Shown piece after piece: positions 18,139 through 33,546 of a DNA stretch of 33,574 nucleotides. The notes beneath the pieces are model-generated. The model searched no databases. It saw only the letters and a list, made by a program, of their open reading frames with translations, and was not told where the DNA came from. Numbering within the stretch: position 1 is the stretch's first letter; each line of letters opens with the position of its first letter. A program made the translations under genes and the position numbers. This DNA comes from a virus, in UHGV virus genome UHGV-0219389. One strand, written 5' to 3'.

Positions 18139-18709
18139 GCCATTACAACTCCCGCCACCGCTTGAGGGTGATACCAGTCTCAGGACGCTGGGAAGACTGG
18201 CAGGGCGGCTGGATAACATCGACCTGAGCGTACTGATGGTCTTTCTCGTCGATATCGTCGACAGTTCTGCGCTGCCATGGCTGTGCGAGCAGTTCTCACT
18301 GTCTGGCGATGGCTGGGAGCTGGCGGAATCGGACGATGTTCGCCGCATGCTTATAAAAGCAGCCATCGAACTGCACCGGTATAAAGGGACGCCGTGGTCA
18401 ATCCGGGAAGTTATCCGCCGTTTTGGCTTTGGTGAAGTGGATCTGATTGAAGGCACAGGTCGTCTCAGTTACGACGGCAATCGCAGCTATAACGGACTGT
18501 TTGTTCATGGAGATGCAGCCGCCTGGGCGGTTTATTGCGTTATTCTGAAACAGCCCATTACTAACGATCAGGCCGCGATGCTGCGTCAGACGCTCGCTGC
18601 ATTTGCACCGGCCCGCTGCCATCTGGCCAGCCTGGAGTATCAGTCTGTGGCCATTCGCTATAACAATACCGCCATCCATGATGGCAGTTATAACCACGGG
18701 AGCAGTTGA
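18131..18709 (+). CDS. tail protein (P2 gpI / Mu gp48-like)
   Basis: ATG at 18131 in frame with track ORF 18119..18709. Confidence 0.6.
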   Translation: MAEPLQLPPPLEGDTSLRTLGRLAGRLDNIDLSVLMVFLVDIVDSSALPWLCEQFSLSGDGWELAESDDVRRMLIKAAIELHRYKGTPWSIREVIRRFGFGEVDLIEGTGRLSYDGNRSYNGLFVHGDAAAWAVYCVILKQPITNDQAAMLRQTLAAFAPARCHLASLEYQSVAIRYNNTAIHDGSYNHGSS

Positions 18710-18711
18710 TT

Positions 18712-19875
18712 ATGGGAAACCTGAATGAAACAGAAAAGTGGGAAGAAAATATCTATCAACTGGAGACATCAGATCCGGTTCTGGGTGGTGCTGACGGGAT
18801 ATCAAATCGAGCCCCCCGGCAACTGGCAAACAGGACGAAATGGCTGAAGAAAAAAACGGAGGAAGCCGCACAGTCACTGGCTGAACACGTACGTTCCCGT
18901 AACCACCCGGACGCGACACTGACAGCTAAGGGGTTCACCCAACTGAGCAGTGCCACCAACAGCACCTCTGAAACGCTGGCCGCCACACCAAAAGCCGTCA
19001 AGGCTGCATACGACCTTGCAGCCGGCAAGGCGCCCGTCAGCCACACTCACCCGTGGAGTCAGATAACGGGAGTGCCTGCTGCCTCGCTGACGGCAAAAGG
19101 CACCGTACAACTGAGCAGCGCCATCAACAGCACGTCTGAAACGCTGGCCGCCACACCGAAAGCGGTCAAGGCTGCATACGATCTGGCAAACGGAAAACAA
19201 CCGGCAGATGCCACGCTCACTGCTCTGGCAGGACTTGCCACTGCAGCAGATCGGTTGCCTTATTTTACCGGAGCAGACCGCGCAGCGCTGGCAACCCTTA
19301 CAGCTATTGGTCGCGCTATTATCGCTAAGGGCAGTATAAAAGATGTCCTCAATTACCTTGGTTTGGGGGAAGGCTCTGCATTGCCTGTTGGTGTACCGGT
19401 TCCGTGGCCCACCGCCACACCGCCAGCAGGCTGGTTAAAGTGCGACGGGCGCGCCTTTACAAAAGAACAATATCCTGTTCTGGCCAGAGTCTACCCGACC
19501 CTCCGTCTTCCCGATTTACGCGGTGAGTTTATCCGTGGATGGGACGACGGGCGCAAAGTTGATACAGGACGTAAGTTGCTGTCCGCACAAGGGGCAACGC
19601 TGTTAAGAACAGCAATGCTGGATTATTATAACCAGGACACTACGGGAACCTCGGGGATAGTCGGCATGGGATTCAACAATGAAGATTCCATTACAGACCT
19701 TCGTGAGGGCAGCTTTAAAATGCCGGACGGGACAACATTCAGCGATCCTGTCATGGCAATGTCAGACAATGGTATGCAGGCTACTATTCTGACCTCTATC
19801 AGAAGCGGGTATGCGAAGGGTATCACTGTCAGACCCCGTAGCATTGCACTTAATTACATTGTGAGGGCAGTTTAA
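18712..19875 (+). CDS. tail fiber protein (constant N-part plus invertible C-terminal variant Sv)
   Basis: ATG at 18712; internal repeats TAKG(F/T)xQLSSA(T/I)NSTSETLAATPKAVKAAYDLA; C-terminal part from about 19360 lies in the invertible segment. Confidence 0.8.
   Translation: MGNLNETEKWEENIYQLETSDPVLGGADGISNRAPRQLANRTKWLKKKTEEAAQSLAEHVRSRNHPDATLTAKGFTQLSSATNSTSETLAATPKAVKAAYDLAAGKAPVSHTHPWSQITGVPAASLTAKGTVQLSSAINSTSETLAATPKAVKAAYDLANGKQPADATLTALAGLATAADRLPYFTGADRAALATLTAIGRAIIAKGSIKDVLNYLGLGEGSALPVGVPVPWPTATPPAGWLKCDGRAFTKEQYPVLARVYPTLRLPDLRGEFIRGWDDGRKVDTGRKLLSAQGATLLRTAMLDYYNQDTTGTSGIVGMGFNNEDSITDLREGSFKMPDGTTFSDPVMAMSDNGMQATILTSIRSGYAKGITVRPRSIALNYIVRAV
18921..19200. repeat. intragenic tail-fiber repeat, 2 copies about 168 bp apart
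   Basis: Duplicated 30-aa motif in the fiber shaft. Confidence 0.7.
19346..19371. other. gix-like crossover site, left (tcctcaattacc-TT-GGTTTGGGGGAA)
   Basis: 26-bp site with inner half-site matching the Hin/Gin/Cin half-site pattern GGTTTnnnnnAA; central TT. Confidence 0.55.
19358..19437. repeat. 80-bp perfect inverted repeat, left copy
   Basis: Reverse complement identical to 20883..20962; encodes the shared peptide GLGEGSALPVGVPVPWPTATPPAGWL. Confidence 0.9.
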
Positions 19876-20489
19876 TGAGTAACACTGCAGTTCTGGATGA
19901 AAACGGTATCGCCACTGTAGCGGGCGATATCACTGTATATCACTATGACGAGGAAACCCGGGAATACACCTCATCCTCTGTGGAGTATCTCGCCCTTGGG
20001 GTGGGTACTCCGGCACATTCGTGCGCCGATGCACCGCCGGAGGCAATTTCGGGTTACGTGGTTTGCCGGACTGCCACGCTGAACGGGTGGGAGCATGTGC
20101 CTGATCACCGCGGCGAGACGGTATACAGCACGGAGAACGGTAACCCCGTTCTGATTACCCAACCGGGTGATTACCCGGCGGACACCACCACAAAACAGCC
20201 TGCCACACCATGGGATACCTGGAACGGTGAAGCGTGGGTAACTGATACTGAACGGCATAGAGCCGCAGAGCTGGAGACTGCCAGACTGCAACGCCAGAAA
20301 CGGGTGGATCAGGCGATGAAGTCCATCGACCTCATCAACCTCAAACTGCGGGCAGGTCGCAGTCTGAAACCAGAAGAAACGGCAAAACTGAACGCCGTGC
20401 TGGATTATATCGACGAGCTGAACGCACTGGATATCAGCAAGGCACCTGAAATCAGCTGGCCGGAAGCGCCACTGGCGCTTGCCGGCTGA
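19875..20489 (+). CDS. tail fiber assembly protein (Tfa/U-like)
   Basis: 204-aa ORF, start overlapping the fiber stop. Confidence 0.75.
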   Translation: MSNTAVLDENGIATVAGDITVYHYDEETREYTSSSVEYLALGVGTPAHSCADAPPEAISGYVVCRTATLNGWEHVPDHRGETVYSTENGNPVLITQPGDYPADTTTKQPATPWDTWNGEAWVTDTERHRAAELETARLQRQKRVDQAMKSIDLINLKLRAGRSLKPEETAKLNAVLDYIDELNALDISKAPEISWPEAPLALAG

Positions 20490-20495
20490 ACGGTA

Positions 20496-20962
20496 TCACG
20501 CCGCCCTCACGATATAGTTAAATGCGATATTGCGGGGGCGAGCTGATACATAAGCCCACCAGTCATATCTTTGTGCACCTTTAGAGGATGCATCAAATAT
20601 CCACTTTTTGCCATTTATGACCCCCAGTTGATTAGAGGTTAAAGCGTCACCAAATCCGTATTGTGTAGAGCCGAGCGAACTGATATCTCCGGTATCATTA
20701 TCATCAAAACCGGATACGATAGTCCCTTCCTGAAATGAAAGTAGCGCACGCCCGGTATCAACCTTGCGACCACCGTCCCATCCACGGATAAACTCACCGC
20801 GCAAATCGGGAAGACGGAGGGTCGGGTAGACTCTGGCCAGAACAGGATATTGTTCTTTGGTGAACGTAGCTCCGTTGCACTGTAACCAGCCTGCTGGCGG
20901 TGTGGCGGTGGGCCACGGAACCGGTACACCAACAGGCAATGCAGAGCCTTCCCCCAAACCAA
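20496..20962 (-). CDS. alternative tail fiber C-terminal segment (Sv'), promoterless
   Basis: Minus-strand frame whose N-terminal 26 aa equal residues of the + strand fiber at the inverted repeat, then diverges; both variants end ...NYIVRA. Confidence 0.7.
20883..20962. repeat. 80-bp perfect inverted repeat, right copy
   Basis: Reverse complement identical to 19358..19437. Confidence 0.9.
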
Positions 20963-20974
20963 CGTTTATCTCTC
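20949..20974. other. gix-like crossover site, right (TTCCCCCAAACC-AA-cgtttatctctc)
   Basis: Inner half-site TTCCCCCAAACC matches the invertase half-site pattern; central AA is the reverse complement of the left-site TT. Confidence 0.55.
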
Positions 20975-21029
20975 AAATCCTCCCCACATTATCTCAGTAC
21001 TTTAACCACTCAAAAGGGAGTATTTTTAA

Positions 21030-21601
21030 TGCTGATTGGCTACATACGTGTGTCAACAAATGACCAAAACACAGATTTGCAACGCAAAGCATTAATGTGC
21101 GCAGGATGTGAACAGATTTTTGAGGACAAAATGAGCGGAACCAAGTCGGAACGTCCAGGCCTGAAACGCGCTTTAAAGTGCCTTAAAAGAGGGGATACAT
21201 TGGTGGTCTGGAAGCTGGATCGGTTGGGTAGAAGAATGAAACACCTCATTGCTCTCACAGAAGAGCTACGCGCAAAAGGTGTCAATTTTCGCAGTCTGAC
21301 GGATTCAATCGATACCAGCACTCCGATGGGAAGGTTCTTTTTTCATATGATGGGTGCACTGGCAGAAATGGAGCGTGAACTGATAGTTGAGCGCACGCTG
21401 GCAGGACTGGCTGCTGCGCGAGCACAAGGGAGAGTTGGAGGACGTCGCCCGAAACTGACGAAGGAGCAGCATGAGCAGATCGCAAGATTGCTCCAGAAAG
21501 GGTATGACAGAAAGCGGCTGGCAATTATCTATGATATTGGACTGTCAACGATCTACCGCTACCACCCTGTTGGGACTGTCATAACGCAACCTGAAATGTA
21601 A
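21030..21601 (+). CDS. gin: DNA invertase (Gin/Pin/Cin/Hin family serine recombinase)
   Basis: N-terminal MLIGYIRVSTNDQNTDLQ catalytic-serine motif and C-terminal HTH; start at ATG 21030 inside track ORF 20900..21601. Confidence 0.85.
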
Positions 21602-21679
21602 TTCTTTTTCAAATAATGAAACGCCGCGTGGATGCCATTTATCGCACAAGATAGAGTGCATTTATCGCGCGGCGCATCA
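21602..21679. repeat. putative Mu-type right end with repeated transposase-binding-like motifs
   Basis: Direct repeats CATTTATCGC at 21636 and 21659, GAAACGCC motif at 21618, sequence ending ...GCGCGGCGCATCA; resembles the Mu right end from memory. Confidence 0.45.
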
Positions 21680-21741
21680 TACAGCCCTTTAGCCTCCAGT
21701 TCTTCCGCTTTGCTGTCTTTAATCATGCTGTACCTCACTGC

Positions 21742-22167
21742 TTAAAACGGTATTCCGTCCCCGTACGGATCATCGTGCTGGCCTGTCTGTTGTTTTGCCC
21801 TGTTCAGTGCGTCAGTAGCCTGGCCCTGCTGGCCTTTTTTGCCGCCCGGTCGCGCCGTTCGCGCACTGATTACGCTGTCTGCGATGACCTGCCAGCCCTG
21901 CCGCGTTTCGCCGTTCTGGCCTGTCCACTGGCTTACCTGCATGTTACCCGCCACGCTCACCAGTTCGCCTTTCTGGTGTTTTGCCAGTGCGTCGGCCTGT
22001 CTGCCAAACGCCAGGACGGATAACCACATCGTCGCCGTTCCGTCATCTGCCTGGCTGCATGGCAGGGGAACCGCCATACTCGCCATCGCCATTTGTGTTC
22101 CCTTGCTGGTGGTCTTTAACTGCGGGTCAGCCACCAGCCGCCCGTAAGCCGCTATCTGTGCTGTCAT
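21742..22167 (-). CDS. SSB-like single-stranded DNA-binding protein
   Basis: 141 aa with Gly/Gln-rich linker and C-terminal acidic tail ending DGIPF, as in SSB (DDDIPF). Confidence 0.55.
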   Translation of the reverse strand: MTAQIAAYGRLVADPQLKTTSKGTQMAMASMAVPLPCSQADDGTATMWLSVLAFGRQADALAKHQKGELVSVAGNMQVSQWTGQNGETRQGWQVIADSVISARTARPGGKKGQQGQATDALNRAKQQTGQHDDPYGDGIPF

Positions 22168-22227
22168 GCTGTCTGTTCTCCGGTTTTAACGTTGATTGTT
22201 ACGCTTGTTTACACCCTTATGGTGAAA

Positions 22228-22376
22228 TTCTGCGGGTTATAATCGCACTTTTGCGGGTTATAACTGCCGTTTTGCGGGTTATTTTGGGTATTTTACGGGT
22301 TACGATTTTCCTGCCATTCCTTTAATAATCATATGGATACTGATTTATCCACAGAAATAACCCGCATAACCCGCAA
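22228..22376. repeat. iteron array (candidate replication origin)
   Basis: Four direct copies of (T)TTTGCGGGTTAT spaced exactly 21 bp (22231, 22252, 22273, 22294), an AT-rich spacer, then two inverted copies ATAACCCGCA (22357, 22366). Confidence 0.7.
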
Positions 22377-22403
22377 AATTTTCACCCTACACGCGAGAAA
22401 AAA

Positions 22404-24530
22404 TTAATCTTCTTCGCTTTCTGGCTGGAACATCAGCACGTAAAAAACATGCTGCTTCCCCCCAATTTTGCCGAGCGCCTTTTTCTTGTAACGGCGATCG
22501 TTACCCGCTTCCAGCATTCCGGCAGCACTCAACGCGCGGGCAAAGTGAGACGGATTAAATCCCTGTGCTATCTCACCCTCAAATACATGCGGGAACGTGT
22601 AAAAACGGAACTCGTCATCTTCGTTTCTGATACTCCCCTTTCTGTATCCGGCAAGCTCTTTAATCGGTAAATCACGCTCGTCAGAGTTGGGCCAGGGAAG
22701 GTATCTGCTGAATCCGAACGACGCTAAAAAAGCCTCTGCCTGTTCAACCATCTGTTTAAACTCCCTGTTACCCGTGCCGAACTCCTTCACCCAGGCATTA
22801 AAATTATGCTGTATGGCATCGCGGCATTCCTGCTCATCCCAGCCAGTAACATGACCTGAAAGCACAAGCGCGGCCTCCAGTATGGCAAATCGCTCCCCCA
22901 CACGGTGAACCTGTTCGCCGTAGCTCTCCGGTATCAGGTTGCGCCACCGCTCACGGCATGTCCTTACCGTGTCCTTTGCCTCCTGCTGGTGTTCTGCCAG
23001 CCATTTAACCCACTCACGACCCGCCGCCCCGTGATTTGCTGTCCAGGCATCCTTTAACGCGTCTGCGTGCGCCTTTCCGGTGCTGTATTCGTGAAATTGC
23101 GTGGCTTTTTCCATCGGAACGTTAAGCAGGCGGACAAGCTGCCCCGCTTTGACTTTTATCCCCTCCGTTTTGAGGAATGTCTCAACGTCCATTTCTCCGG
23201 TGCTGATTGCCACCGTTCGCCAGTGTTTTATCTCCCTGTTGCCGCCGTCCTTTGCCCCCTGTAATTTCCCGGAACCGTTAAACAGCGTATAGGCTGACGT
23301 GGACACCTCCCGCGCGTTTCCGGCCTGGCCTATTTCATCCAGGGGTAAAAGCCCGTCATTGTGTGCCTCTGCTTCGTTGGCGATACCTAACGCTGTGCCG
23401 TACCAGGTCAGCCGCTGCGCGTCCGGCTCTCCCCATAAACTTGATGCGATGTTCTGCGTTGTGGTCTTACCTGCCGATGACTGTTCGAAAAGATGTACCC
23501 CGAAGCCGTCAGCGCCCACCAGCCCGATTAATGGTGCGGATAACGATACCGCCACCCCCAGCATCATGGACGGATTACCACCAGCCAGTCGCGCCACGGT
23601 GTCGCGCCAGCCCTCCGCCGTTCCTGCCACGGAATAGCCATTAACAGCAGCAGTTTTTCCGGTAAACAGGACTGGCTTTTCGCAATCACCAATGACCGAA
23701 CCGTCCGGCATGATGTACGCGCCAAAATGCCAGCCCGTTGTTGTGCTTAACTGCCATTCCTCATGGCTTCCGCTTAACTGCATCCAGTCAGCCAGGATTG
23801 CCCTGTATTTACCGTTGGTTGTTACGTTCAGTCCGTGGTCTTTCAGCAGCCGCCAGCCGTCACGGTCGCCAATGCCACCGCACGGAACCGCCATTGTGAT
23901 GACTTCATGATTTGCTGGCTTTTTCCAGCGCATCACGCGGTAATGTTCTTTGCCGATTGTCCCCGTTCCCAGCAGTTCAAGCGGGGAACATAACCACGTC
24001 TCAGGCCGGATAATTTCGCCTGACTGCTTGTCCACTTTTGGCGTAACCCAGAAAACACCATCGGCGCGGCTTTCAACGCGGGGCTTTAATTCATCATCAC
24101 CCGGGCTTTCTGTGATTTTTTTCTTTAAGGGCAACACCAGACTTTCCCCGCGCTCGTATTCGTCTTTGAGGCGAGGCAACTGGTCGGATAAATCCGCCGG
24201 GCTGGTGTCAGTTATCCCCGCGTATTCGTATACGGTCTTCACGCCAGCCACAGCCAGCAACGTGACGATCTGTGTAAGGCTACGTTCAGTGATGTGCCCT
24301 GCGCGGTAAATACGCACACACTGACGGCTATCATCAATAATTTGATAACCGGTAATATCTTTCAGGTGTTCATCTGACAGAACGACAGGCGGCACATTGT
24401 CGGCGGCAATATGCTTACCTGCCCATTCCTGCCACTCTTTCGCATGGCTCCACGCATCACTACCCGCAAAGATGATAACCTCCGTCATTTTGTCGGCTGG
24501 CTGGTGCTTTAAGTTTGGTGCGCGCTTCAT
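22404..24530 (-). CDS. primase-helicase-like replication protein (P-loop NTPase)
   Basis: 708 aa with P-loop-like FEQSSAGKTT; placed beside the iterons as replication initiators are in P4-like and PICI-like elements. Confidence 0.55.
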   Translation of the reverse strand: MKRAPNLKHQPADKMTEVIIFAGSDAWSHAKEWQEWAGKHIAADNVPPVVLSDEHLKDITGYQIIDDSRQCVRIYRAGHITERSLTQIVTLLAVAGVKTVYEYAGITDTSPADLSDQLPRLKDEYERGESLVLPLKKKITESPGDDELKPRVESRADGVFWVTPKVDKQSGEIIRPETWLCSPLELLGTGTIGKEHYRVMRWKKPANHEVITMAVPCGGIGDRDGWRLLKDHGLNVTTNGKYRAILADWMQLSGSHEEWQLSTTTGWHFGAYIMPDGSVIGDCEKPVLFTGKTAAVNGYSVAGTAEGWRDTVARLAGGNPSMMLGVAVSLSAPLIGLVGADGFGVHLFEQSSAGKTTTQNIASSLWGEPDAQRLTWYGTALGIANEAEAHNDGLLPLDEIGQAGNAREVSTSAYTLFNGSGKLQGAKDGGNREIKHWRTVAISTGEMDVETFLKTEGIKVKAGQLVRLLNVPMEKATQFHEYSTGKAHADALKDAWTANHGAAGREWVKWLAEHQQEAKDTVRTCRERWRNLIPESYGEQVHRVGERFAILEAALVLSGHVTGWDEQECRDAIQHNFNAWVKEFGTGNREFKQMVEQAEAFLASFGFSRYLPWPNSDERDLPIKELAGYRKGSIRNEDDEFRFYTFPHVFEGEIAQGFNPSHFARALSAAGMLEAGNDRRYKKKALGKIGGKQHVFYVLMFQPESEED

Positions 24531-24841
24531 TTTGCCTTTCTCCGTTCACGAATAATTTCACGTACTGCCTTAATGCGTTCCATACCTGTAACGCGCATGA
24601 TTCTGTCGATGTCGCTTAAGTTCGCTGGTGGTGCTTTGCTTACCAGGGTGAATTCACTCTCAAAACGCATATGTGACGACACGCAGGGATGCGCATAACC
24701 TTCGCGGATATAGGTCACGCGAAAATCATCGACGGTTTTAATCGTTATCGTGCTGCCGTATTTATCCTGGAAAATATCGCCGGGGCGGATTTCAGGCCGA
24801 GCGGAGCCGCTGGCAGTAAAGCCAGAATTTTTCTTTTTCAT
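24527..24841 (-). CDS. hypothetical protein, coupled to the primase gene
   Basis: 104-aa ORF overlapping the primase start by 4 bp. Confidence 0.45.
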   Translation of the reverse strand: MKKKNSGFTASGSARPEIRPGDIFQDKYGSTITIKTVDDFRVTYIREGYAHPCVSSHMRFESEFTLVSKAPPANLSDIDRIMRVTGMERIKAVREIIRERRKAK

Positions 24842-24847
24842 GTTTTT

Positions 24848-25066
24848 TTACTCCAGAGGCCGCTTTTTAGCGAAGAGTTCAATATCAGATGTCAGAGAAA
24901 CCTGTGTATTTGCCAGGTCTAACAACAAAGAAATAAGAATTTCCTCTCTGCTATCTGATTTATCGGTGCTAAGGCTGTTCATCCACATATTGACGACTTC
25001 CCTGATTTTTTTCGCAGAGTGCATGGCTTCAAATGCCAGGTCTTCAATATCATGTTTATTTCGCAT
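24848..25066 (-). CDS. hypothetical small protein
   Basis: Internal ATG of track ORF 24848..25132, chosen to limit overlap with the upstream gene. Confidence 0.35.
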   Translation of the reverse strand: MRNKHDIEDLAFEAMHSAKKIREVVNMWMNSLSTDKSDSREEILISLLLDLANTQVSLTSDIELFAKKRPLE

Positions 25067-25268
25067 AATCGCCCCCGCGTAACTGGTCTGCACTAACACC
25101 CGATTTAGTGAGCATTTCAGAAAATCCCGCAAGAGTGCTGATAAATTCGTTTTCCATTAAACGGCACTGGCATTTAACCCGGCCTTTTTCCAGATACACC
25201 AGTACGCACCCCGTATAATCTGACGGCACATTCAGCACTACAGATAAGTGCGCTTCATTATTATTCAT
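25056..25268 (-). CDS. hypothetical small protein
   Basis: 70-aa ORF in the same operon. Confidence 0.35.
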   Translation of the reverse strand: MNNNEAHLSVVLNVPSDYTGCVLVYLEKGRVKCQCRLMENEFISTLAGFSEMLTKSGVSADQLRGGDYAK

Positions 25269-25497
25269 GGCTCACCACCTCCATATCAGCCATGATAATT
25301 TTGCTGGCCTCATTCAGTGCCATATCAGCACTAAGTTGCATTACAGCCAGTGAATGAGGAACGAAAGCCCCGGCATATTCTGTTTCGCTGGTGGCGTGCT
25401 TATGCGCCTTGTCTGCGATAACAGAAATATCAATCAGCGCGTGCATCAGCGTTTTGATGGCTTCGGCGGCTGCGTCCGGACGGGTGTTATTGCACAT
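25261..25497 (-). CDS. hypothetical small protein
   Basis: 78-aa ORF overlapping its neighbours at both ends. Confidence 0.35.
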   Translation of the reverse strand: MCNNTRPDAAAEAIKTLMHALIDISVIADKAHKHATSETEYAGAFVPHSLAVMQLSADMALNEASKIIMADMEVVSHE

Positions 25498-25693
25498 GGA
25501 GCACCCCCTGACGAATACGGGCGGCGAATACCATCACGCAGCCAGCCGGGGATTGCTGGCGTGCTTCCTGTTCGCTGGTGGCCACGATGTGAATCACGCG
25601 CGGTTGTGCGGTGCTCAGGGCGATAAAACGCCAGATGTATTTATTCAGGTTGTGCGAGTCCCGCCCTTGCGGGTGTGTGGTATGATTTCTCAT
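25487..25693 (-). CDS. hypothetical small protein, first gene of the leftward operon
   Basis: 68-aa ORF from ATG 25693 with GAGG RBS; this is the C-terminal part of the 301-aa track ORF, whose upstream part crosses operator palindromes. Confidence 0.4.
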   Translation of the reverse strand: MRNHTTHPQGRDSHNLNKYIWRFIALSTAQPRVIHIVATSEQEARQQSPAGCVMVFAARIRQGVLHVQ

Positions 25694-25770
25694 AGCTACC
25701 TCGATACTCTTGCTATCGTTGGTGGTTAGACGCCCTGCATGTGTTGCGAGCACTGCGGGGCGTTGCTTAA

Positions 25771-25826
25771 TTTGAGTGACAAAACTCAAACTGTGCGCAC
25801 AGATTAAAATCATGTGTGCGCACATG
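25771..25826. promoter_or_regulatory. divergent promoter/operator region with palindromes
   Basis: TTTGAGT-N6-ACTCAAA at 25771-25790; perfect palindrome TGTGCGCACA at 25792-25801 and again at 25815-25824; half-site TGTGCGC near 25862. Confidence 0.6.
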
Positions 25827-25898
25827 TCAATACTTAACATCTCATTTTTTTTGCTGTATTGTGTGCGCCCATAAAGTCCATTTAAGTGAGGTGCATCA

Positions 25899-26096
25899 AT
25901 GTCTAGCGGTAACACAAACAACAAATCAGCAAAGAAAAATATTCGATTCCCACATGAGCTTATAGATGGGATTGATGCCAGCGTTGAACAAGAAAAATTA
26001 ACTAATCCTAGTGCTAATTTTTCCGCATGGGTCTTAGATGCCTGTGGACGCAAATTAAAATATGAACAGCGCCGGAAGGCCAAAGAATCAGAATAA
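25899..26096 (+). CDS. ribbon-helix-helix (Arc/Mnt-like) putative repressor
   Basis: 65 aa; segment KNIRFPHELIDGIDASVEQEKLTNPSANFSAWVLDAC has the beta-strand/helix/helix pattern of Arc (RWPREVLDLVRKVAEENGRSVNSEIYQRV, from memory). Confidence 0.5.
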   Translation: MSSGNTNNKSAKKNIRFPHELIDGIDASVEQEKLTNPSANFSAWVLDACGRKLKYEQRRKAKESE

Positions 26097-26138
26097 TCAC
26101 TATCAGCGCCGTGGTGTGAGTAACTACGGCGCATTGCT

Positions 26139-26327
26139 ATGCAGGACAACACAATGACCGATAAAGAATTGACCAAAACATTATCACCGACACGGAAAAG
26201 ACGGCGCAGAAAGATAGAGCATGAATCAGAAAGATTCGCACCTTGTTCGTTTGCTCTTGAGAAATTCCTTAAAGAGCGCAGGAAAAAGCTCTCGTTGCAA
26301 ACCTTGGAACGAACCAAATCTGACTGA
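26139..26327 (+). CDS. hypothetical basic protein
   Basis: 62-aa Lys/Arg-rich ORF downstream of the RHH gene; weak RBS. Confidence 0.25.
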   Translation: MQDNTMTDKELTKTLSPTRKRRRRKIEHESERFAPCSFALEKFLKERRKKLSLQTLERTKSD

Positions 26328-26460
26328 TCACATTGCCCACCAGCCGCAAATGTGGCATTGTTGGTGATGCTTTTGTTTTCCCTTGTTCCCACTGGCTACC
26401 CTTTTGCGGTCGCCTTTGTTTTGCCTGTTATCCGGCAATAGTGGCGCTTCGTCACCTGTC

Positions 26461-26549
26461 TGATATAATTCCACTGCTTATATTCATTTTTTGCGCAGTA
26501 GGTTAATTGTTCGCAAGGGCGCTCCGGCAACGGGGCGCTTTTTGTTTTT
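26461..26549 (+). ncRNA. candidate small RNA (extended -10 promoter to intrinsic terminator, about 70 nt)
   Basis: TGaTATAAT at 26461-26469; stem-loop TTGCG..CGCAA; terminator GCGCTCCG-GCAA-CGGGGCGC + TTTTTGTTTTT at 26519-26549; no ORF with RBS between. Confidence 0.35.
26519..26549 (+). terminator. intrinsic terminator (8-bp stem, GCAA tetraloop, U-tract)
   Basis: GCGCTCCG / CGGGGCGC stem with one G-U pair, followed by TTTTTGTTTTT. Confidence 0.6.
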
Positions 26550-26707
26550 ACCCACCAGCACAATAAAAATCTTCATTTTCCATTTTTGTAAAATTTCATG
26601 CTTTCCGGACGACTGGTCATATGTCATTTTTTAGCAGAAGATTTTGCCTTGCTGGTGGGTAGCTTCCCGGTCAACACGATGTACCGTATAATCAACACCG
26701 CGTGTGG

Positions 26708-27292
26708 TTACTGAATACGCTCACCAAAGTAAAACTCAGGCTGGTATTCACGTATCAGCCTTTTTTCTTCTTCCTCCAGCTCACGCTTTTTGCGCTTACA
26801 TGCCTGTAGCTCCCTCCCCTTCTCGCTGGCACTTATCTGATATTGCTCTTTGCGGCGGGAAAAATCCTGTAATGCGCCCCACGGGATACCATAAGCCCCC
26901 GTTTTTCTGATACCCGGTATCACATTTCTGAATACCCAGTTACTGAAACGATGGGCGAACGTGCCAGGAGTAGCAGCTTTGCGACTTCTGGCAATCAGCT
27001 TGTAAAAGCCAGATTCAGAAACGACGCTATGATTTGGATTTCCGCGAATACCGTAAGTTAAAGTTACGGTATTACTTTCATCATCATCCAGAGCTTGCAA
27101 CGCCATGCGTGAATTGGATAATTCAAGCGCCGCACAAACATCCTTTGCAACAAACCACGGATCGCCGTTCAGATACACCACACGAACATCCACGCCATCA
27201 AAACGTAGAACGACCTGATCACGAATATCGCAGAATTTTTTCACTGGACGTGCATTCCCCTTGCCCATCATGGCAATATTTTTATTCATCAC
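26708..27292 (-). CDS. Bro-N domain antirepressor-like protein
   Basis: N-terminal motif DGDPWFVAKDVCAALEL characteristic of Bro-N; 194 aa; GAGG RBS. Confidence 0.65.
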   Translation of the reverse strand: MMNKNIAMMGKGNARPVKKFCDIRDQVVLRFDGVDVRVVYLNGDPWFVAKDVCAALELSNSRMALQALDDDESNTVTLTYGIRGNPNHSVVSESGFYKLIARSRKAATPGTFAHRFSNWVFRNVIPGIRKTGAYGIPWGALQDFSRRKEQYQISASEKGRELQACKRKKRELEEEEKRLIREYQPEFYFGERIQ

Positions 27293-27308
27293 TTTCTACC
27301 TCACATAC

Positions 27309-27336
27309 AAAAAACCCCGCATTGCGTGGTGCGGGG
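27309..27336 (-). terminator. intrinsic terminator after the AlpA-like gene
   Basis: Minus-strand stem CCCCGCA / TGCGGGG followed by TTTTTT. Confidence 0.55.
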
Positions 27337-27346
27337 TTGTCGGTAA

Positions 27347-27625
27347 TTACTTATTGGCGTTTTTGTATGGGCTGTTTACTTCCTTTACTCCTGGCGGATG
27401 CATAACCCACCAGAGCACATCAGAGAGCAACCAGGAAACAGACACTTTCCCTAAATGAGCACGAGCAGGAAATGCTCCCTCCTGTTCAAGTACCCAACGT
27501 CTGCTTCTTGAAAGCCCGGTACGATTGGCACACTCATGTTCGCGTATACGGCGATCATACGGTTCGCCATGCTCTTTCAGAATCTGAATGCGTTCTTCGG
27601 GTGTAGGATAAATAAATTTTTGCAT
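27347..27625 (-). CDS. AlpA-family HTH regulator
   Basis: Start at internal ATG 27625 (MQKF...) with AGGTGA RBS; TGLSRS..W HTH pattern. Confidence 0.55.
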   Translation of the reverse strand: MQKFIYPTPEERIQILKEHGEPYDRRIREHECANRTGLSRSRRWVLEQEGAFPARAHLGKVSVSWLLSDVLWWVMHPPGVKEVNSPYKNANK

Positions 27626-27637
27626 AAAAATATCACC

Positions 27638-27665
27638 TATAAAAAAACCCGCCAAAAGACGGGTT
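27638..27665 (-). terminator. intrinsic terminator-like hairpin between the two AlpA-like genes
   Basis: Minus-strand stem AACCCG / CGGGTT followed by a 7-nt U-run. Confidence 0.45.
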
Positions 27666-27688
27666 GATTATATCTCATTTAATTTAGC

Positions 27689-27910
27689 TCAGGGTTTCCA
27701 TTCACCCTTTACCCATTCCAGCACCTCAGATAAGCGCCAGACTTTTGTTTGTGGGCCAATACATATTTTTCGTGGAAATTTTCCTTCCTTTTCAAGTAAC
27801 GATCTGTGTCTCCTGCCAAGAGCGGTTAACCATGCACATTCATCTTCCTTAATCATCCTGTCGATTGTTTTATCATTTTCAAGTTCTTCACGCGTAACTA
27901 TTTGAATCAT
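27689..27910 (-). CDS. excisionase/AlpA-like HTH protein
   Basis: Small ORF overlapping the integrase 3' end; AlpA-like pattern (ECAWLTALGRRHRSLLEKEGKFP). Confidence 0.5.
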   Translation of the reverse strand: MIQIVTREELENDKTIDRMIKEDECAWLTALGRRHRSLLEKEGKFPRKICIGPQTKVWRLSEVLEWVKGEWKP

Positions 27911-29111
27911 TACCGTCACCACTAATTAGCTTATTCAGATAGTCATACCACCAATTCATAGCTTCTTTTTTTCTGTCCATATACTGGCTTCTGTTATAAA
28001 CCCCGGCAACACCGCCTAATGTGTGCCCAAGCAACTGTTCAACCACATTATGTTCAAAACCATGATCACTTAGCTTTGTGGCAAACACTCTTCGCATATC
28101 ATGCGCCGTCCATTTCTCCGAGTGTTTCATCCTTTTCCATGTCTTACCGATAGTTACGCTTGCCGTACACTGACGCATATCAAACCCAATCACATTTTCT
28201 TTGTTACCTGTTATTTTTTTTAACGTAACTAACCAGTTAAACATGCCATCAGGAATCGGTCTGATTATTTCCCTGCCATTTTTGCTATGATCAGCGGGAA
28301 CGCGCCATAATTTCTTATCAAAATCCCACTCTCCCCAGGAGGACAGTAATACTTCTGACAGTCGACAACCAAAAACTACCAGGAAACGTAAAATAATTCG
28401 GTTTTCATATGATAATTCGTGATTGTCATAATCAGTATTAATACTTCGCCATAAATCTCTGATTTCATCATCTGTTAAAACCCTGCTTCTTCGCGCAGAC
28501 TTTTTTCCCACATCACAGACCTCAAGATCATCAATTTCATGACTAATCGCGTATTTTCTTACCCGACAAAATTTAAGCGCCTGTTTTGATATACGCAACA
28601 AAGCTCCGGCCTGTACAGGTGCTACTTTTTTTATTTTGTCAAAACACTTGATCCACATAGATATAGAGCAATCACTAAGTGGTACATGACCAATCACCGG
28701 ATAAATATGTTTACCAAAGCACTGCCTGATATGTTCTGCTCCCCTACGCTTATCCATTGCATAATTATCAAGCCAGTATTCAAGTGCCTCACGAACGGTA
28801 ACAGGTTGCAAGGTGGCTTCCCGTTCAATTTTTATCTGAATCCGTGGATCTCTGCCCTCCGCAAGCCAGGTTCGACACTGATCGCGCATCTCTCTCGCTG
28901 ATTTGAGACTCAGATCAGGATATTTCCCAAGTGTCAGCCAGATGGGCGCGGTTCCCCTTCCCGCCAGTCTGTAAAAGAAAACAAAACTAACACATCCGTA
29001 TTTACTGACCCGTACCGAAAGCCCGTTACCATCAGCGATGGTTTCCTGCCTCTCACTCCTGCGCCCAAGCAGGGAACGAAGTTTTTTATCGCTCAGTTTG
29101 TTTAGCGCCAT
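27888..29111 (-). CDS. int: tyrosine integrase (P4-type)
   Basis: N-terminal MALNKLSDKK...GNGLSVRVSKYG resembles P4-family integrase; C-terminal HDMRR...LLGH...Y catalytic region; start taken at ATG 29111. Confidence 0.85.
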   Translation of the reverse strand: MALNKLSDKKLRSLLGRRSERQETIADGNGLSVRVSKYGCVSFVFFYRLAGRGTAPIWLTLGKYPDLSLKSAREMRDQCRTWLAEGRDPRIQIKIEREATLQPVTVREALEYWLDNYAMDKRRGAEHIRQCFGKHIYPVIGHVPLSDCSISMWIKCFDKIKKVAPVQAGALLRISKQALKFCRVRKYAISHEIDDLEVCDVGKKSARRSRVLTDDEIRDLWRSINTDYDNHELSYENRIILRFLVVFGCRLSEVLLSSWGEWDFDKKLWRVPADHSKNGREIIRPIPDGMFNWLVTLKKITGNKENVIGFDMRQCTASVTIGKTWKRMKHSEKWTAHDMRRVFATKLSDHGFEHNVVEQLLGHTLGGVAGVYNRSQYMDRKKEAMNWWYDYLNKLISGDGNDSNSYA

Positions 29112-29116
29112 GTGAT

Positions 29117-30310
29117 TTATAACCCGTTTTTGCAATACACAGTGCAATACACAAATGATGAAAACAGCCAGAACCTTCCAGAAAAAACAAAAACGACGAA
29201 CAAGAAAAAATCTTTTTCTTTCATTTGGTTACTAAAAAAATCAGGACAGGTCGCACTGTTGTTACGGCGTGATGTTACTTTCTTGGTAAAAAAATTCACC
29301 CGCGCAGAGACCTGCTCCTTCGCTTTTTTCGCCAGACGACGCAGATCATCCCAGCGTTTACAGATGCCCAGGCCAGGATTCGCTTTCTGCCAGACCGTTT
29401 CATCAAACGGATCATCTCCCTCATCAAGCGTGTAAATGATCGCAAAGTAAGAGTCGTCTTTTACAGCGCCCTCCACGTCGCTGTTATAGCCTCGCAATAC
29501 CTTGATGGCGTAATCACGCTGCTCGTAACAAATCCCTTCCTTGTTAAAGCCAGCCGTGGTGATACCAAATAACAGGGACTGCAGACGGGCACCGGTTGCC
29601 GTTTCCAGAACGTCCCACACGTCGCGGGTTTTATGTGCATGCAGCTCATCAATAATGGCGCAGTGGATGTTCAGACCGTCCAGGTTGTTTGCATCCGAGG
29701 AAAGCGGTTCAAATTTTGATGCGCTCTGCTCCTGGTAAATCGCCAGCTTGTTGAAATCAAACAACCGCCCGAGTGTCGACCGGGCTTTTCTGACCATATT
29801 TTTGGCGTCTTCAAACACGATTCTGGCCTGGTCAAGCGTGGTTGCGGCTGAATACACCTCAGCTCCGCCTTCACTATCTGCCCCCGTCATATACAGACCG
29901 ATACCCGATGACAGGGTTGATTTTGCGTTTTTACGGGCAACTTCGTTGTATGCTGTCCGGAACCGGCGCACCATCACCGGGCGTCCACTGCCATCGCTGC
30001 GCATGACAACTTCCCCGGTTTCTTCATTCACCAGCGGAATGACAAAACCAAAAATATTAATGAGGATAAACACATGCCAGTCCATCAACTCAATGGGCTG
30101 ACCTGCCAGCGCCCCTTTCACATGGGGTACAAATTTGTAGAAATTAAGGATGTGCTGTGCACGAGGTTCACTGAAATAAATCCCCCGCTCTTCGCCGTAC
30201 TTCAGATCATCAAGAAAACGCTGGCAGGCCAGACGGACAAATTCGCCAGCAACAATTTCTCCTGCAACAACACGTTCGGCGTAGCGGATCCCGTCAGCCA
30301 CTTTTGCCAT
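29117..30310 (-). pseudogene. terminase large subunit, 3'-truncated (ATPase domain only)
   Basis: terL-like sequence through about residue 340 (..WQKANPGLG..), then low-complexity tail from AT-rich DNA abutting the integrase start. Confidence 0.65.
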
Positions 30311-30792
30311 CAGTCTCTCGCTTTTAAAAGCTCTGCCAGCGGATCAACATCATCCGGTCCGGCGGTATTTACTTTCGCCCGGCTTGCCGGTGACATACCA
30401 AACTCTGCAAGCATCGCCCGAATCCGCTTCCAGGCATCAGCCTTCATCGCAGCAGCCGGGTGTGCCTTGATCAGCACATCGCCATTCTGCGTTTTCGTGC
30501 GGTAGGTATAACCCTCAACATCGAGTATTTCGCAGTGATGCCGGTATTCGGTGTAGGCTTCCACCAGTAACTCGAGCGCACGTGCATCGAGCTGAGAAAT
30601 GATCCCTTCCGCATTCAGCTCTTCCGCCATTCGCCTGAACCAGTACTTCCCCTGCGCCCCTAAATGTTGCGGAATTTTAGGGAGACCTTTTTCATCCTTT
30701 TTAGCGGTTTTTTTGAGGTCTTTAACTGGCCGCTTTGAGGGGTTGCCTCGTATCAAATGCAGGCGTGGCGGGATTTTCGGGGGTCCAGACAT
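30310..30792 (-). CDS. terminase small subunit (P27-family-like)
   Basis: 160-aa ORF with stop overlapping the terL start; position between HNH and terL. Confidence 0.65.
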   Translation of the reverse strand: MSGPPKIPPRLHLIRGNPSKRPVKDLKKTAKKDEKGLPKIPQHLGAQGKYWFRRMAEELNAEGIISQLDARALELLVEAYTEYRHHCEILDVEGYTYRTKTQNGDVLIKAHPAAAMKADAWKRIRAMLAEFGMSPASRAKVNTAGPDDVDPLAELLKARD

Positions 30793-30939
30793 AATCGGTT
30801 TTACCTATCAATCATTTAATCACATTCCAAAAAAAAGTTTTCGAACCTGCGGCGATGCGAGGAAAGGTCAGGCGGCGGTACTGAGCAGCCAGGGTTGCAG
30901 AGATTTGACCTGCCCCTCCCCTACAGATGGGAACTGTTA

Positions 30940-31290
30940 TCAATTGATGCGTTCGCGCGCTGTTTTTGCTTTATGACAGGGCCAGCACAGACTCTGCAGG
31001 TTACTGTCTGCATCCGTGCCACCATGAGCTTTCGGAATGATGTGGTCCACAGTTCTGGCTTCAACGGCTCTCCCATTGCGCAGGCAGTTCTGACACAGAT
31101 GATTATCACGCTTCAGTATGCGCGCACGTATGGCATCCCATTTCGAGCCATAGCCACGCTGGTGGCGGCTCAGTCCGCGTTGATGCTGTACCCATCCTTC
31201 GCCACGATGTTTATCGCAGTAACCAGAACTGTCTGTGGTTGTACCTGCACATCCACGCTTACGGCAGGCGCGTGGGATTCGTGGGGGCAT
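30940..31290 (-). CDS. HNH endonuclease
   Basis: Motif CQNCLRNGR...DHIIPKAHGG...NLQSLCWPCH; start at ATG 31290 (MPPRIP) with GGAG RBS. Confidence 0.8.
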   Translation of the reverse strand: MPPRIPRACRKRGCAGTTTDSSGYCDKHRGEGWVQHQRGLSRHQRGYGSKWDAIRARILKRDNHLCQNCLRNGRAVEARTVDHIIPKAHGGTDADSNLQSLCWPCHKAKTARERIN

Positions 31291-31410
31291 ATGTACTCCA
31301 ATGAAGAAGCCACCGACATAGCCTCCTCCATTCATAGTGAAACTATTTTCATCTACCCAGTAATGAATTCTTTGTAGAGTTGTGATCAATACAACTCACT
31401 AATGGAGAGG

Positions 31411-31445
31411 CTTGTCCAACACGTTGGACAAGTTTCCTGTTTGAT
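31411..31445 (+). terminator. 10-bp inverted repeat (CTTGTCCAAC-ac-GTTGGACAAG) followed by a T-rich run
   Basis: Perfect arms at 31411-31432, then tttcctgtttgattt. Confidence 0.35.
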
Positions 31446-31815
31446 TTACTGGACACTATAGAAGGACAGAATGCCTTCATCACTCGAATAACATCAATTA
31501 AGGAGGTTCAACATGTTTCATTCCACAAATCATCAGGCTGTAATTATGGCTGCATCAGCTTGTGCCACAGACCTTTTCCGCTTCACTTTGAGCCTGATTC
31601 ATTTCTACCTGACCGGCTCGCCTCTATCTTTTTAATCCCCGCTTTATCCAAATTGCATTGCCAGAATGCCGACAACAGACTGACATTCAAATCCTGACTA
31701 CCTCCAATAGGCTGAGCATCCACCTATATAGTTTTAATTTTCATCAATCCATTTAACTATCGTTTAATTGTTGTCACATAGGATTCTGCCATTTTTAACA
31801 ATGCAGGATAATAAG

Positions 31816-32109
31816 ATGAAAAAAATGTTGTTTTCTGCCGCTCTGGCAATGCTTATTACAGGATGTGCTCAACAGACGTTTACTGTTGGAAACAAACCGA
31901 CAGCAGTAACACCAAAGGAAACCATCACCCATCATTTCTTCGTTTCGGGAATTGGACAGGAGAAAACTGTTGATGCAGCCAAAATTTGTGGCGGCGCAGA
32001 AAATGTTGTTAAAACAGAAACCCAGCAAACATTCGTAAATGGATTTCTCGGTTTTATTACTTTAGGCATTTATACTCCACTGGAAGCGCGTGTGTATTGC
32101 TCACAATAA
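31816..32109 (+). CDS. bor: Bor outer-membrane lipoprotein
   Basis: 97 aa; MKKMLFSAALAMLITGCAQQTFTV... with lipobox ITGC, nearly identical to lambda Bor as remembered; opposite strand to Rz as in lambda. Confidence 0.85.
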   Translation: MKKMLFSAALAMLITGCAQQTFTVGNKPTAVTPKETITHHFFVSGIGQEKTVDAAKICGGAENVVKTETQQTFVNGFLGFITLGIYTPLEARVYCSQ

Positions 32110-32140
32110 TTGCATGAGTTGCCCATCGATATGGGCAGCT

Positions 32141-32602
32141 CTATCTGCACTGCTCATTAATATACTTCTGGGTTCCTTCCAGTTGTTTTTGCATAGTGAT
32201 CAGCCTCTCTCTGAGGGTGAAATAATCCCGTTCAGCGGTGTCTGCCAGTCGGGGGCTGGTTGCATTATCCACGCCGGAGGCGGTGGTGGCTTCACGCACT
32301 GACTGACAGACTGCTTTGATGTGCAACCGACGACGACCAGCGGCAACATCAGCGCGCAGAGTTTCATTTTCAGCTTTCGCATTGGCTAATTCTCTCGAGT
32401 ACTTTGCATCGAGTGCAGCAACATCACGCTGACGCTGCTGCATGTCAGCGATGGTGGCGATCGCCTGCTTCAGCTCACTGACTTTTTTATCACGCTGTTC
32501 TTTGTAGGCGATGGCGTTATCACGGTAATGATTGACCGCCCACGACAGGCAGACGATGATGCAGATAACCAAAGCATAAATAATCGCGGCGACTCTGCTC
32601 AC
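32141..32602 (-). CDS. Rz: i-spanin Rz
   Basis: N-terminal transmembrane segment and coiled-coil periplasmic domain, near-identical to lambda Rz as remembered; probable GTG start at 32602 overlapping the endolysin stop. Confidence 0.8.
32200..32382 (-). CDS. Rz1: o-spanin Rz1 lipoprotein, embedded in Rz in the +1 frame
   Basis: 60 aa, lipobox VVGC, proline-rich KPPPPPAW, ends ..SPSERG, lying entirely inside Rz. Confidence 0.85.
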
Positions 32603-33132
32603 TGCTCTATCCCCCAACAGGCTAATGCGCTTTCCTGGTCACGACGAATAACCTGTCCATAGCAGTTATTTGAACGTATGCGGCAATCGCGCCCACCATC
32701 TTTTATCCACCAGCGAATCGCCTCGCATGCGCCCTTACGATCACCGGCATTCAGCCGCTTATAAAACGTCGACGGGAAACACTTACCGGGGCCAATGTTA
32801 TAGGGACAGAATGACGCTATACCCGCTTTTTGTGGTTCGGTCAGTGGTACTTTAATATTGCGCTCCACCCATGCCAGCGCCTTATCACGCTCAATGGCGT
32901 TGACCTGGTCGCATTTTTCCTTCGACAGTTTCATACCGGGAAAAACGGGTTTTCCATCCACCATCGTGGCACCCCGACAGATGGTCCAGATGCCGGACCC
33001 ATCGCGGTATGCCGTTGTGTGGTTACCTTCTTTTTCATCCAGAAACTGGTCGAGAATATCAGGCGCGGGCGCACCGACGGCAATCAGTGCCAGAACGGCA
33101 GCCGACAGGCCGTATCTGATTTTTGCGTTCAT
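32599..33132 (-). CDS. endolysin (lysozyme), SAR-type
   Basis: 177 aa with N-terminal weakly hydrophobic segment [16 protein letters not shown]; resembles prophage RrrQ/RrrD-type lysozymes from memory. Confidence 0.8.
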
Positions 33133-33195
33133 GGATATTTATCAGGATTTATCGGTTTCTGCCCACGGACAGGTTTATCTGTTCCGGTCAGTGAC

Positions 33196-33546
33196 TTAAG
33201 GTTGTGATTCCGGAGGAGTCTTCAGAGAACCAGTAATTCTTCCCGGTAGCTTTCCTTTGTAGGTTATCCATACATTCTGCGCCTCTAAAATTACGGGGCG
33301 CTTTTCCGGCGACTGCTCATCCCCTTCACATAACCCGGCAGCAACATCCAGGAAGACCTGTCTGATGCTCATTCTGGCTGCTGCCTCATAAAACTCCAGC
33401 GCGGCACCTTCAACACGGTCCAGCGAGATGTCCAGGTCAAAAATTTCACCGTCAAAGCGTTTTTTGTCCCGTAACGCTAAAGTTACCGTAACTTTATTCT
33501 CAAAATTGCGGATCCCTTTCACAATCAGTTCATAGTTTTGAGTCAT
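33196..33546 (-). CDS. DUF1327 (YdfR-like) phage protein
   Basis: 116-aa ORF immediately upstream of the endolysin; placement between holin and lysozyme as in Qin-type cassettes (from memory). Confidence 0.4.
   Translation of the reverse strand: MTQNYELIVKGIRNFENKVTVTLALRDKKRFDGEIFDLDISLDRVEGAALEFYEAAARMSIRQVFLDVAAGLCEGDEQSPEKRPVILEAQNVWITYKGKLPGRITGSLKTPPESQP

Follow-up and report, generated by a model that had tools for sequence, protein, structure and literature searches.

How can a phage alternate between two fibre tips when only one of them is followed by a chaperone gene? The question is raised by a stretch of 33,574 nucleotides from the virus genome UHGV-0219389 (hereafter the window), in which an invertible segment of 1.6 kb, bordered by inverted crossover sites at 19346-19371 and 20949-20974, contains one fibre tip on the plus strand (tip B), a single tail-fibre assembly gene (tfa) on the plus strand and a second tip (tip C) on the minus strand, with the gene of a serine invertase alongside. 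The layout resembles the G segment of Mu and the C segment of P1, in which a serine invertase likewise acts on 12-2-12 crossover sites (core AAACC..GGTTT) and a constant fibre gene receives alternative 3' ends in frame. Mu and P1, however, carry one tfa for each orientation (U and U'), whereas the window has one in total and tips of the collar class; the paired arrangement Sv-U and U'-Sv' is not found in the window.

A preliminary description of this DNA had pointed out the asymmetry and proposed either that the second tip folds without Tfa or that the segment is a decayed or novel variant of the switch. Here, we present a comparative analysis of the segment and its relatives. The window carries an ordinary and widespread prophage inversion switch that swaps the receptor-binding fibre tip, not a product of decay, and the segment represents the enterobacterial tail-fibre switch of the Min/Pin type in a minimal form, with two tips.

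Organization of the invertible segment

Positions 1-21600 of the window form a late region that combines Mu-like head genes with P2-like tail genes. It is found beside aroA in ST131-type E. coli as well, with the similarity stopping just past the invertase. From 21.7 kb the window belongs to another element, which lies on the minus strand and carries SSB, a DUF927 protein, Bro-N and an integrase; a lambdoid remnant comes after it.

The fibre gene S (18706-19875, +) encodes two Phage_fiber_2 repeats and a Collar domain. Its constant 5' part, Sc (18706..19354, +), has a TTG start that overlaps the P2-I-like gene and contains both repeats. Joined to Sc in the window orientation is tip B (Sv; 19355..19875, +), in which the collar is followed by a variable insert of 80 aa and by RPRSIALNYIVRAV, the closing strand. 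Tip C (Sv'; 20496..20965, -) is unfused in this orientation and encodes 155 aa, again a collar, with a variable insert that here measures 63 aa and with RPRNIAFNYIVRAA as its closing strand. The lone tfa gene (19875..20489, +; 204 aa) begins with an ATG that overlaps the stop codon of tip B, and hence of S (TAATG), and is preceded by a Shine-Dalgarno sequence, GAGGG, at 19863-19867, 7 nt upstream. Only 6 bp (20490-20495) separate the stop codons of tfa and tip C, and the last tfa codons, between the convergent genes, form a GC-rich hairpin (20452..20489; centroid -26.9 kcal/mol, z = -2.0) with no T-run. The coordinates in the preliminary description, including those of tfa and its 6-bp distance from the end of Sv', are all correct.

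The inverted repeat consists of two arms of 229 nt with 90% identity, and the inverted-repeat DNA is the collar-coding DNA: the left arm (19355..19583, +) codes for the conserved collar part of tip B and the right arm (20737..20965, -) for that of tip C. Inversion in silico joins Sc in frame to the minus-strand tip, giving an Sc-C fibre of 372 aa.

Crossover sites and invertase

The left crossover site (19346..19371, +) has the 12-2-12 layout TCCTCAATTACC TT GGTTTGGGGGAA, with the central TT at 19358-19359. The right site (20949..20974, -) reads TTCCCCCAAACC AA CGTTTATCTCTC on the plus strand, with the central AA at 20961-20962. The cores are TTACC TT GGTTTGGGGGAA on the left (19353-19371, +) and AAACG TT GGTTTGGGGGAA on the right (20949-20967, -). 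The two sites thus form an inverted pair with the 12-2-12 spacing, the AAACC-NN-GGTTT core and the asymmetric central dinucleotide that characterize the substrates of Hin, Gin, Cin, Pin and Min (the Din family). In all 33.6 kb of the window the site motif has just two occurrences, one at the outer end of each arm, against a chance expectation of 0.1. The left site matches the inverted-repeat sequences of e14, Mu and EPEC printed by Goldberg et al. 2014, who give the e14 and Mu site as AAACCTTGGTTTGGGAGAA (PMC4272514).

Adjoining the segment is the gene of a 190-aa serine DNA invertase of the Hin/Gin/Cin/Pin/Min type (21029..21601, +), a small serine recombinase with an N-terminal Resolvase domain (PF00239, 6e-51) and a C-terminal HTH_7 domain (PF02796, 1e-12), matched over the full length, as in other Din proteins; it also matches the DNA invertase family phrog_125 (3e-94). 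With only two sites in the window, tfa cannot flip on its own. A third crossover site that would invert tfa alone was considered and ruled out, the only further candidate being a weak 34-nt repeat (I2) that lacks the site motif. As read from the sequence, the invertase would recombine only the two sites centred at 19358/59 and 20961/62, flipping 1.6 kb and exchanging B for C in frame.

Collar tips of the T4 gp37 kind

Each of the two tips is built on a T4 gp37-like collar domain, closed by the invariant strand RPRNIAFNYIVRA. An alignment of 13 cassettes shows a near-invariant N-terminal part of 78 aa, a hypervariable insert of about 50-85 aa and this same invariant end. The collar domain (PF07484) is recognized in both window tips (5e-15 and 9e-16), and the tip profile matches the T4 gp37 tip (2xgf; E 2e-20), its C-terminal NIAFNYIVR strand included, as well as the phiTE short tail fibre (9cuy; E 1e-22) and T4 gp12. 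Both window tips terminate in RPR(S/N)IA(L/F)NYIVRA, which had been suspected to mark a shared C-terminal module; it does so, being the invariant closing strand of the collar domain. The hypervariable insert is presumably the receptor binder. T4 gp37 has in common with the window tips the collar domain, the NIAFNYIVR strand and a variable part between them, but its insert is a long intertwined needle, in contrast to the 50-85 aa of the inserts found here.

Known collar proteins differ in what they need for assembly. T4 gp37 requires gp38 and gp57A, whereas the collar tip of T4 gp12 is not known to require a gp38-type chaperone, so there is precedent for both behaviours. A scan of one genome per species yielded 79 loci that carry tips like those of the window, spanning Pantoea, Erwinia, Xenorhabdus, Photorhabdus, Yersinia and other genera.

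Both orientations occur in nature

Of 5426 complete E. coli genomes, up to 202 contain the Sc-C junction as a single, uninterrupted 99% match (coverage of at least 80% of the synthetic junction), and up to 327 contain the Sc-B junction as a single 99% match; both figures are maxima, since same-strand BLAST pieces were joined. Near-identical modules thus occur in hundreds of sequenced E. coli, in both orientations. Two inverted loci could be read directly (L006 and L007; strain 131 and the P2-like prophage of PCN033), and in both of them the fibre gene continues into tip C, with tfa and tip B antisense, the fate that had been foreseen for tfa after inversion. Along with the junctions and the inversions measured in EPEC cultures (see below), these loci establish from relatives that both orientations occur, as in other Din systems.

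None of the relatives examined has a shortened tip C, which gives no support to the idea that Sv' might be a frame-disrupted remnant. Compared with the 77%-identical tip of Rahnella laticis, it has a dN/dS of 0.06 overall and of 0.135 within the variable insert. These values show that tip C is under purifying selection and argue that it is functional, and the label "decayed" finds no support in the combination of intact relatives, in-frame fusions and low dN/dS.

A single tfa gene under selection

The product of tfa has the features of the Caudo_TAP family, namely the C-terminal domain (PF02413, residues 79-199, E 2e-26; phrog_105, 1e-86) and a gene directly 3' of a fibre gene. A search of the PDB with Tfa gave no match. 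Searched with a Tfa C-domain profile that had been iterated over 89 sequences, the whole window yields exactly one tfa, in agreement with the initial count of one tfa for two tips. A U' gene hidden antisense to tfa would have restored the symmetry, and the minus strand of 19875..20495 had been singled out as the place to look for it. The profile scan detects no second tfa on that strand. The window does have a stop-free run of 172 aa opposite tfa, but homologues have 38-80 aa: the longest antisense run has a median of 80 aa in 73 homologous tfa genes and measures 38 aa in the p15B-like copy. Nothing conserved, therefore, is encoded opposite tfa. The gene itself has a dN/dS of 0.2-0.34, and this purifying selection implies that tfa is not dispensable in every state.

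Does this single Tfa recognize a particular tip? The usual rule is that Tfa N-domains are tip-specific, and the N-domain of Mu Tfa is reportedly its fibre-binding part, in work attributed to North et al. (2019). Among 73 adjacent tip-Tfa pairs from many genera, the median identity is 43% for the N-domain and 37% for the more variable C-domain. The N-domains of other genera are 50-63% identical to that of the window's Tfa, and the neighbouring tip inserts are mostly unrelated. Co-variation of the N-domain with the insert is absent (Spearman 0.08, 73 pairs). If the N-domain binds the fibre as in Mu, then the lack of co-variation implies that Tfa would recognize a conserved feature, the collar or the closing strand, rather than the insert. 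We infer that Tfa is probably generic in this sense, which would explain how one gene suffices for 2, 3 or 10 cassettes.

One tfa is the norm among relatives

The arrangement of a tip, a tfa downstream of it and a second tip converging on the pair is a conserved building block of this family. The module is common to P1-like phage-plasmids, P2-like prophages and the ST131 prophage beside aroA, the last combining a single tfa with three tips. Units with one tfa but varying pairs of tips are found in E. coli, Klebsiella plasmids, Xenorhabdus and Enterobacter. One tfa between convergent tips is standard in the p15B-Min-like, EPEC P2-like and ST131 loci, and the suggestion that the window holds a novel variant can be set aside.

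The closest experimental parallel comes from the P2-like prophage of EPEC E2348/69, where Goldberg et al. 2014 (PMC4272514) used sequencing and PCR on cultures and measured two overlapping inversions, of 1891695-1893703 and of 1892127-1893703. The 215-bp repeat of that locus, as printed, begins ACCTTGGTTTGGGGGAAGG (PMC4272514), which is the window's site, and the repeat is likewise collar-coding. The chaperone is not discussed in this paper on the EPEC shufflon (PMC4272514). In the EPEC locus (NC_011601.1, 1891695-1893703) the order is H-tip1, tip2 (+), tfa (-), tip3 (-) and invertase. It shares with the window the tip, tfa and convergent tip, the 6-bp gap between the convergent stop codons, a Tfa that is 59% identical and an invertase in the matching downstream position. 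It differs in having a third tip and a third site, which generate four isomers, and in its other insert types.

A more elaborate version is the Min multiple-inversion region of plasmid p15B, reportedly described by Sandmeier et al. in 1990-1992. Plasmid pMCR_SCKP-LL83 carries an inversion region with 99% identity to the p15B min region, according to its authors (PMC5786510), and this copy (our locus L009) contains 10 collar-tip cassettes, one tfa and an invertase. Like the window, it combines invariant cassette ends with one tfa inside the invertible DNA, and its invertase and Tfa are 84% and 56% identical to those of the window. It differs in its 10 cassettes, its many sites and its location on a P1-like plasmid. 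The window thus has the collar-type cassettes with conserved ends and the single invertible tfa of a Min region; more than two sites and more than two cassettes, the other mark of such a region, are not found in it, the counts being two sites and two tips. Given that the parts are homologous, the window is a minimal relative of the Min-like region and not itself a multiple-inversion region.

Collar tips with and without tfa

Most collar tips in the 79 loci have a tfa directly after them. Symmetric segments with two tfa genes also exist, in pro483, L074 and the Cedecea locus L097, and C-like tips with an adjacent tfa occur in Enterobacter and Cedecea. The latter led us to reject a need for Tfa that depends on tip type, which a first sample had suggested, since none of its nine C-type tips (0/9) was next to a tfa. 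The 900-nt rule for tip-tfa adjacency applied to that sample also mislabelled some cassettes in multi-cassette loci. In one tailocin-like locus, Cedecea has two tfa genes and Enterobacter sp. Ap-916 has one, so loss of tfa does occur. The usual presence of tfa after tips, its presence next to C-like tips and the symmetric two-tfa segments all suggest that a co-oriented Tfa has value.

There are also clusters that have none. Four P2-type clusters checked with Pfam (an Enterobacterales MAG, Pluralibacter, Rahnella laticis and Rahnella contaminans) have the gene order I, H, sheath, with 160-210 nt from H to the sheath gene; in a fifth, L079 from another Enterobacterales MAG, the same order was read from the ORF listing alone. 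The tips in these tfa-free clusters are C-like (Rahnella, 77% identical), B-like or of other collar types. The clusters were viewed over about 7 kb on each side, and a tfa elsewhere in those genomes could serve them.

A further case is a P2-type cluster of Ewingella americana (L098), in which H, fused to a B-like tip (55% identical), is followed by a 98-nt spacer with a terminator and then by a convergent C-like tip (71%), with 215-nt repeats of 94% identity; the invertase and the sheath gene come next. No tfa was found within the roughly 7 kb viewed on each side. This locus is the window's segment minus the chaperone, the 98-nt terminator spacer replacing tfa. Carotovoricin Er, in a study attributed to Nguyen et al. 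(2001), is likewise said to have a tfa-free tip switch. Every tip type has been seen both with and without tfa.

How might the second tip assemble?

In the mechanism that we favour, tip B and Tfa would be co-produced from the late transcript in the window orientation, by way of translational coupling. After inversion, C would be produced with tfa antisense and silent, and would assemble without a phage-encoded Tfa; Tfa itself would be generic and helpful but not obligatory. As a whole, this reading of a two-tip Min/Pin-type switch, with a generic, facultative Tfa and a tip C that assembles without it, has in our judgement a probability of roughly 55%. Assembly of tip C without co-expressed Tfa is the most likely course within it. 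The preliminary suggestion that Sv' folds without a Tfa is in this respect favoured by the tfa-free clusters and by Ewingella, and it is from such comparative evidence that we infer it.

Perhaps, instead, both tips need Tfa and receive it whatever the orientation, either from a promoter inside the unit or from the Tfa of other resident prophages. The similarity of N-domains between genera, independent of the insert, makes cross-complementation plausible; lambda Tfa can replace T4 gp38, E. coli genomes have a median of 3-4 places matching the module, and tfa has a Shine-Dalgarno sequence of its own. On the other hand, a consensus scan of 18600-21800 revealed no sigma-70-like promoter on either strand, although the scan is insensitive, having also missed the invertase's own promoter. 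Since the variable insert in which the DNA upstream of tfa lies is unrelated from one relative to the next, conservation of a promoter there is unlikely, and the invertase and downstream genes are co-directional with the fibre gene wherever the module occurs, which leaves nothing to read back into the segment. Tfa from uninduced prophages would be an unreliable dependence. We consider orientation-independent supply improbable, though it fares best among the alternatives.

It could also be argued that the C orientation is a costly dead end, in which the C fibre assembles poorly and the layout persists through neutrality in the lysogen and the spreading of the module as a unit. Tips of the gp37 type are classically chaperone-dependent, the symmetric relatives retain two tfa genes, and orientation in lysogen assemblies is uninformative on virion fitness. 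What speaks against such a cost is the conservation of tip C under purifying selection across genera, the recurrence of the one-tfa unit with varied tip pairs from E. coli to Xenorhabdus, and the existence of tfa-free switches and clusters; moreover, about half of the isomers would be dead in a 10-tip shufflon. This explanation seems to us distinctly unlikely.

Slightly less probable again is that Tfa acts mainly as a bound cap or adhesin and not as a folding chaperone, such that the switch alternates between B plus Tfa and bare C. Mu Tfa is reported to stay bound to the tip, and such a role would fit the translational coupling of tfa to B, the occurrence of collar tips with and without tfa and the greater variability of the Tfa C-domain. 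The same type of Tfa, however, is found beside inserts that are unrelated to one another, and this speaks against a receptor-specific role linked to B. Finally, a decayed remnant of a Mu G or P1 C-type segment that lost U' and no longer uses tip C is very improbable: symmetric relatives exist and the Cedecea and Ap-916 loci differ by one tfa, but tip C is intact, is conserved under purifying selection and forms in-frame fusions in many genomes, and the two sites and the invertase show no damage.

Implications

In the literature that we searched, we found no discussion of how collar tips cope without a co-oriented Tfa, and the question concerns the whole family and not the window alone. RefSeq labels several tip fragments of this kind as incomplete. 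For annotation, a solitary tfa and "orphan" tip fragments that adjoin an invertase gene should be read as a working switch and not as pseudogenes. Engineering of host range in phages and tailocins usually moves a tip together with its chaperone; if collar tips accept a generic Tfa or none, tip cassettes alone would be swappable between P2-like, P1-like and tailocin scaffolds.

The favoured mechanism can be taken a step further, tentatively and with less confidence than the mechanism itself. Tfa may read the invariant collar or closing strand and hence serve any cassette while being needed by none, in which event inversion would switch not only the insert but also the presence of the chaperone or cap. 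If so, one locus would give rise to two kinds of fibre, one assisted or capped by Tfa and the other bare, and the rule that Tfa N-domains are tip-specific would be overturned.

Fibre genes, tips and the assembly protein

In the RefSeq annotation of the loci L004, L005, L006 and L008, PGAP labels both the fibre gene and those tips that are not fused to it as pseudogenes, described as 'incomplete; missing N-terminus'. Because the fibre gene starts with TTG and the tips are cassettes, these labels are annotation artefacts rather than signs of decay. The fibre shaft itself contains a 168-bp tandem duplication (83% identity; window 18919-19028 and 19087-19196) that spans Phage_fiber_2 repeats. Matches in some relatives are about 168 bp longer, probably reflecting a difference in the copy number of this shaft repeat.

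One tailocin-like locus is found with two tfa genes in Cedecea neteri (L097) but with only one in Enterobacter sp. Ap-916 (L094), and at this locus the tip facing the C-like tip comes from another fold family, Gp53-like_C. One switch can therefore hold both collar and non-collar tips. Among 73 tip-Tfa pairs (L001-L088), the N-domain of Tfa is the better conserved part, with a median identity of 43% versus 37% for the Caudo_TAP C-domain, which is the opposite of how Tfa is usually described. The Tfa proteins of this set are matched by a Pfam model, Caudo_TAP_N (PF28596).

The boundary between tfa and tip C

The final codons of tfa (window 20452-20489) can form a strong, GC-rich hairpin of 16 pairs, interrupted by a bulge and lacking a T-run. 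Its position is exactly where tfa and tip C converge, between the two genes. The corresponding place differs in two other switches: the copy in the P2-like prophage of EPEC strain E2348/69 has only a small hairpin, while the tfa-free switch of Ewingella americana has a classical terminator.

The region past the invertase

The genes immediately past the invertase, encoding an SSB, a DUF927 protein (708 aa), a Bro-N protein and a tyrosine integrase, constitute a separate integrative element (window 21742-29147, -). Iteron-like repeated copies of TTTTGCGGGTTAT motifs occur at 22228-22380. The similarity of the ST131 prophage to the window ends at about 21680. Next comes a lambdoid remnant (window 29117-33546, -), in which a cut large terminase gene is followed by genes for small terminase, HNH, Rz, lysozyme and DUF1327 proteins. 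The large terminase is broken off inside the nuclease domain, the match covering only positions 2-68 of 286. The terminase ORF and the end of the integrase ORF overlap by about 30 nt, which looks as if terL had been the insertion site of the island.

The invertase in other settings

In the P1-like phage vB_EcoM-673R5 (L092, ON470615.2 3859-4430), which has five collar tips, the invertase is annotated in two pieces, Hin1 and Hin2, and the tfa profile match is likewise in two parts; the switch may be disrupted, or the splits may be sequencing errors. A 115-kb plasmid, NZ_OP290546.1, matches the 3' two-thirds of the window invertase gene with 99% identity (108356-109034). This match is annotated as a recombinase and adjoins 'prepilin, shufflon protein A'. 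A pilV shufflon may be another target of the same invertase.
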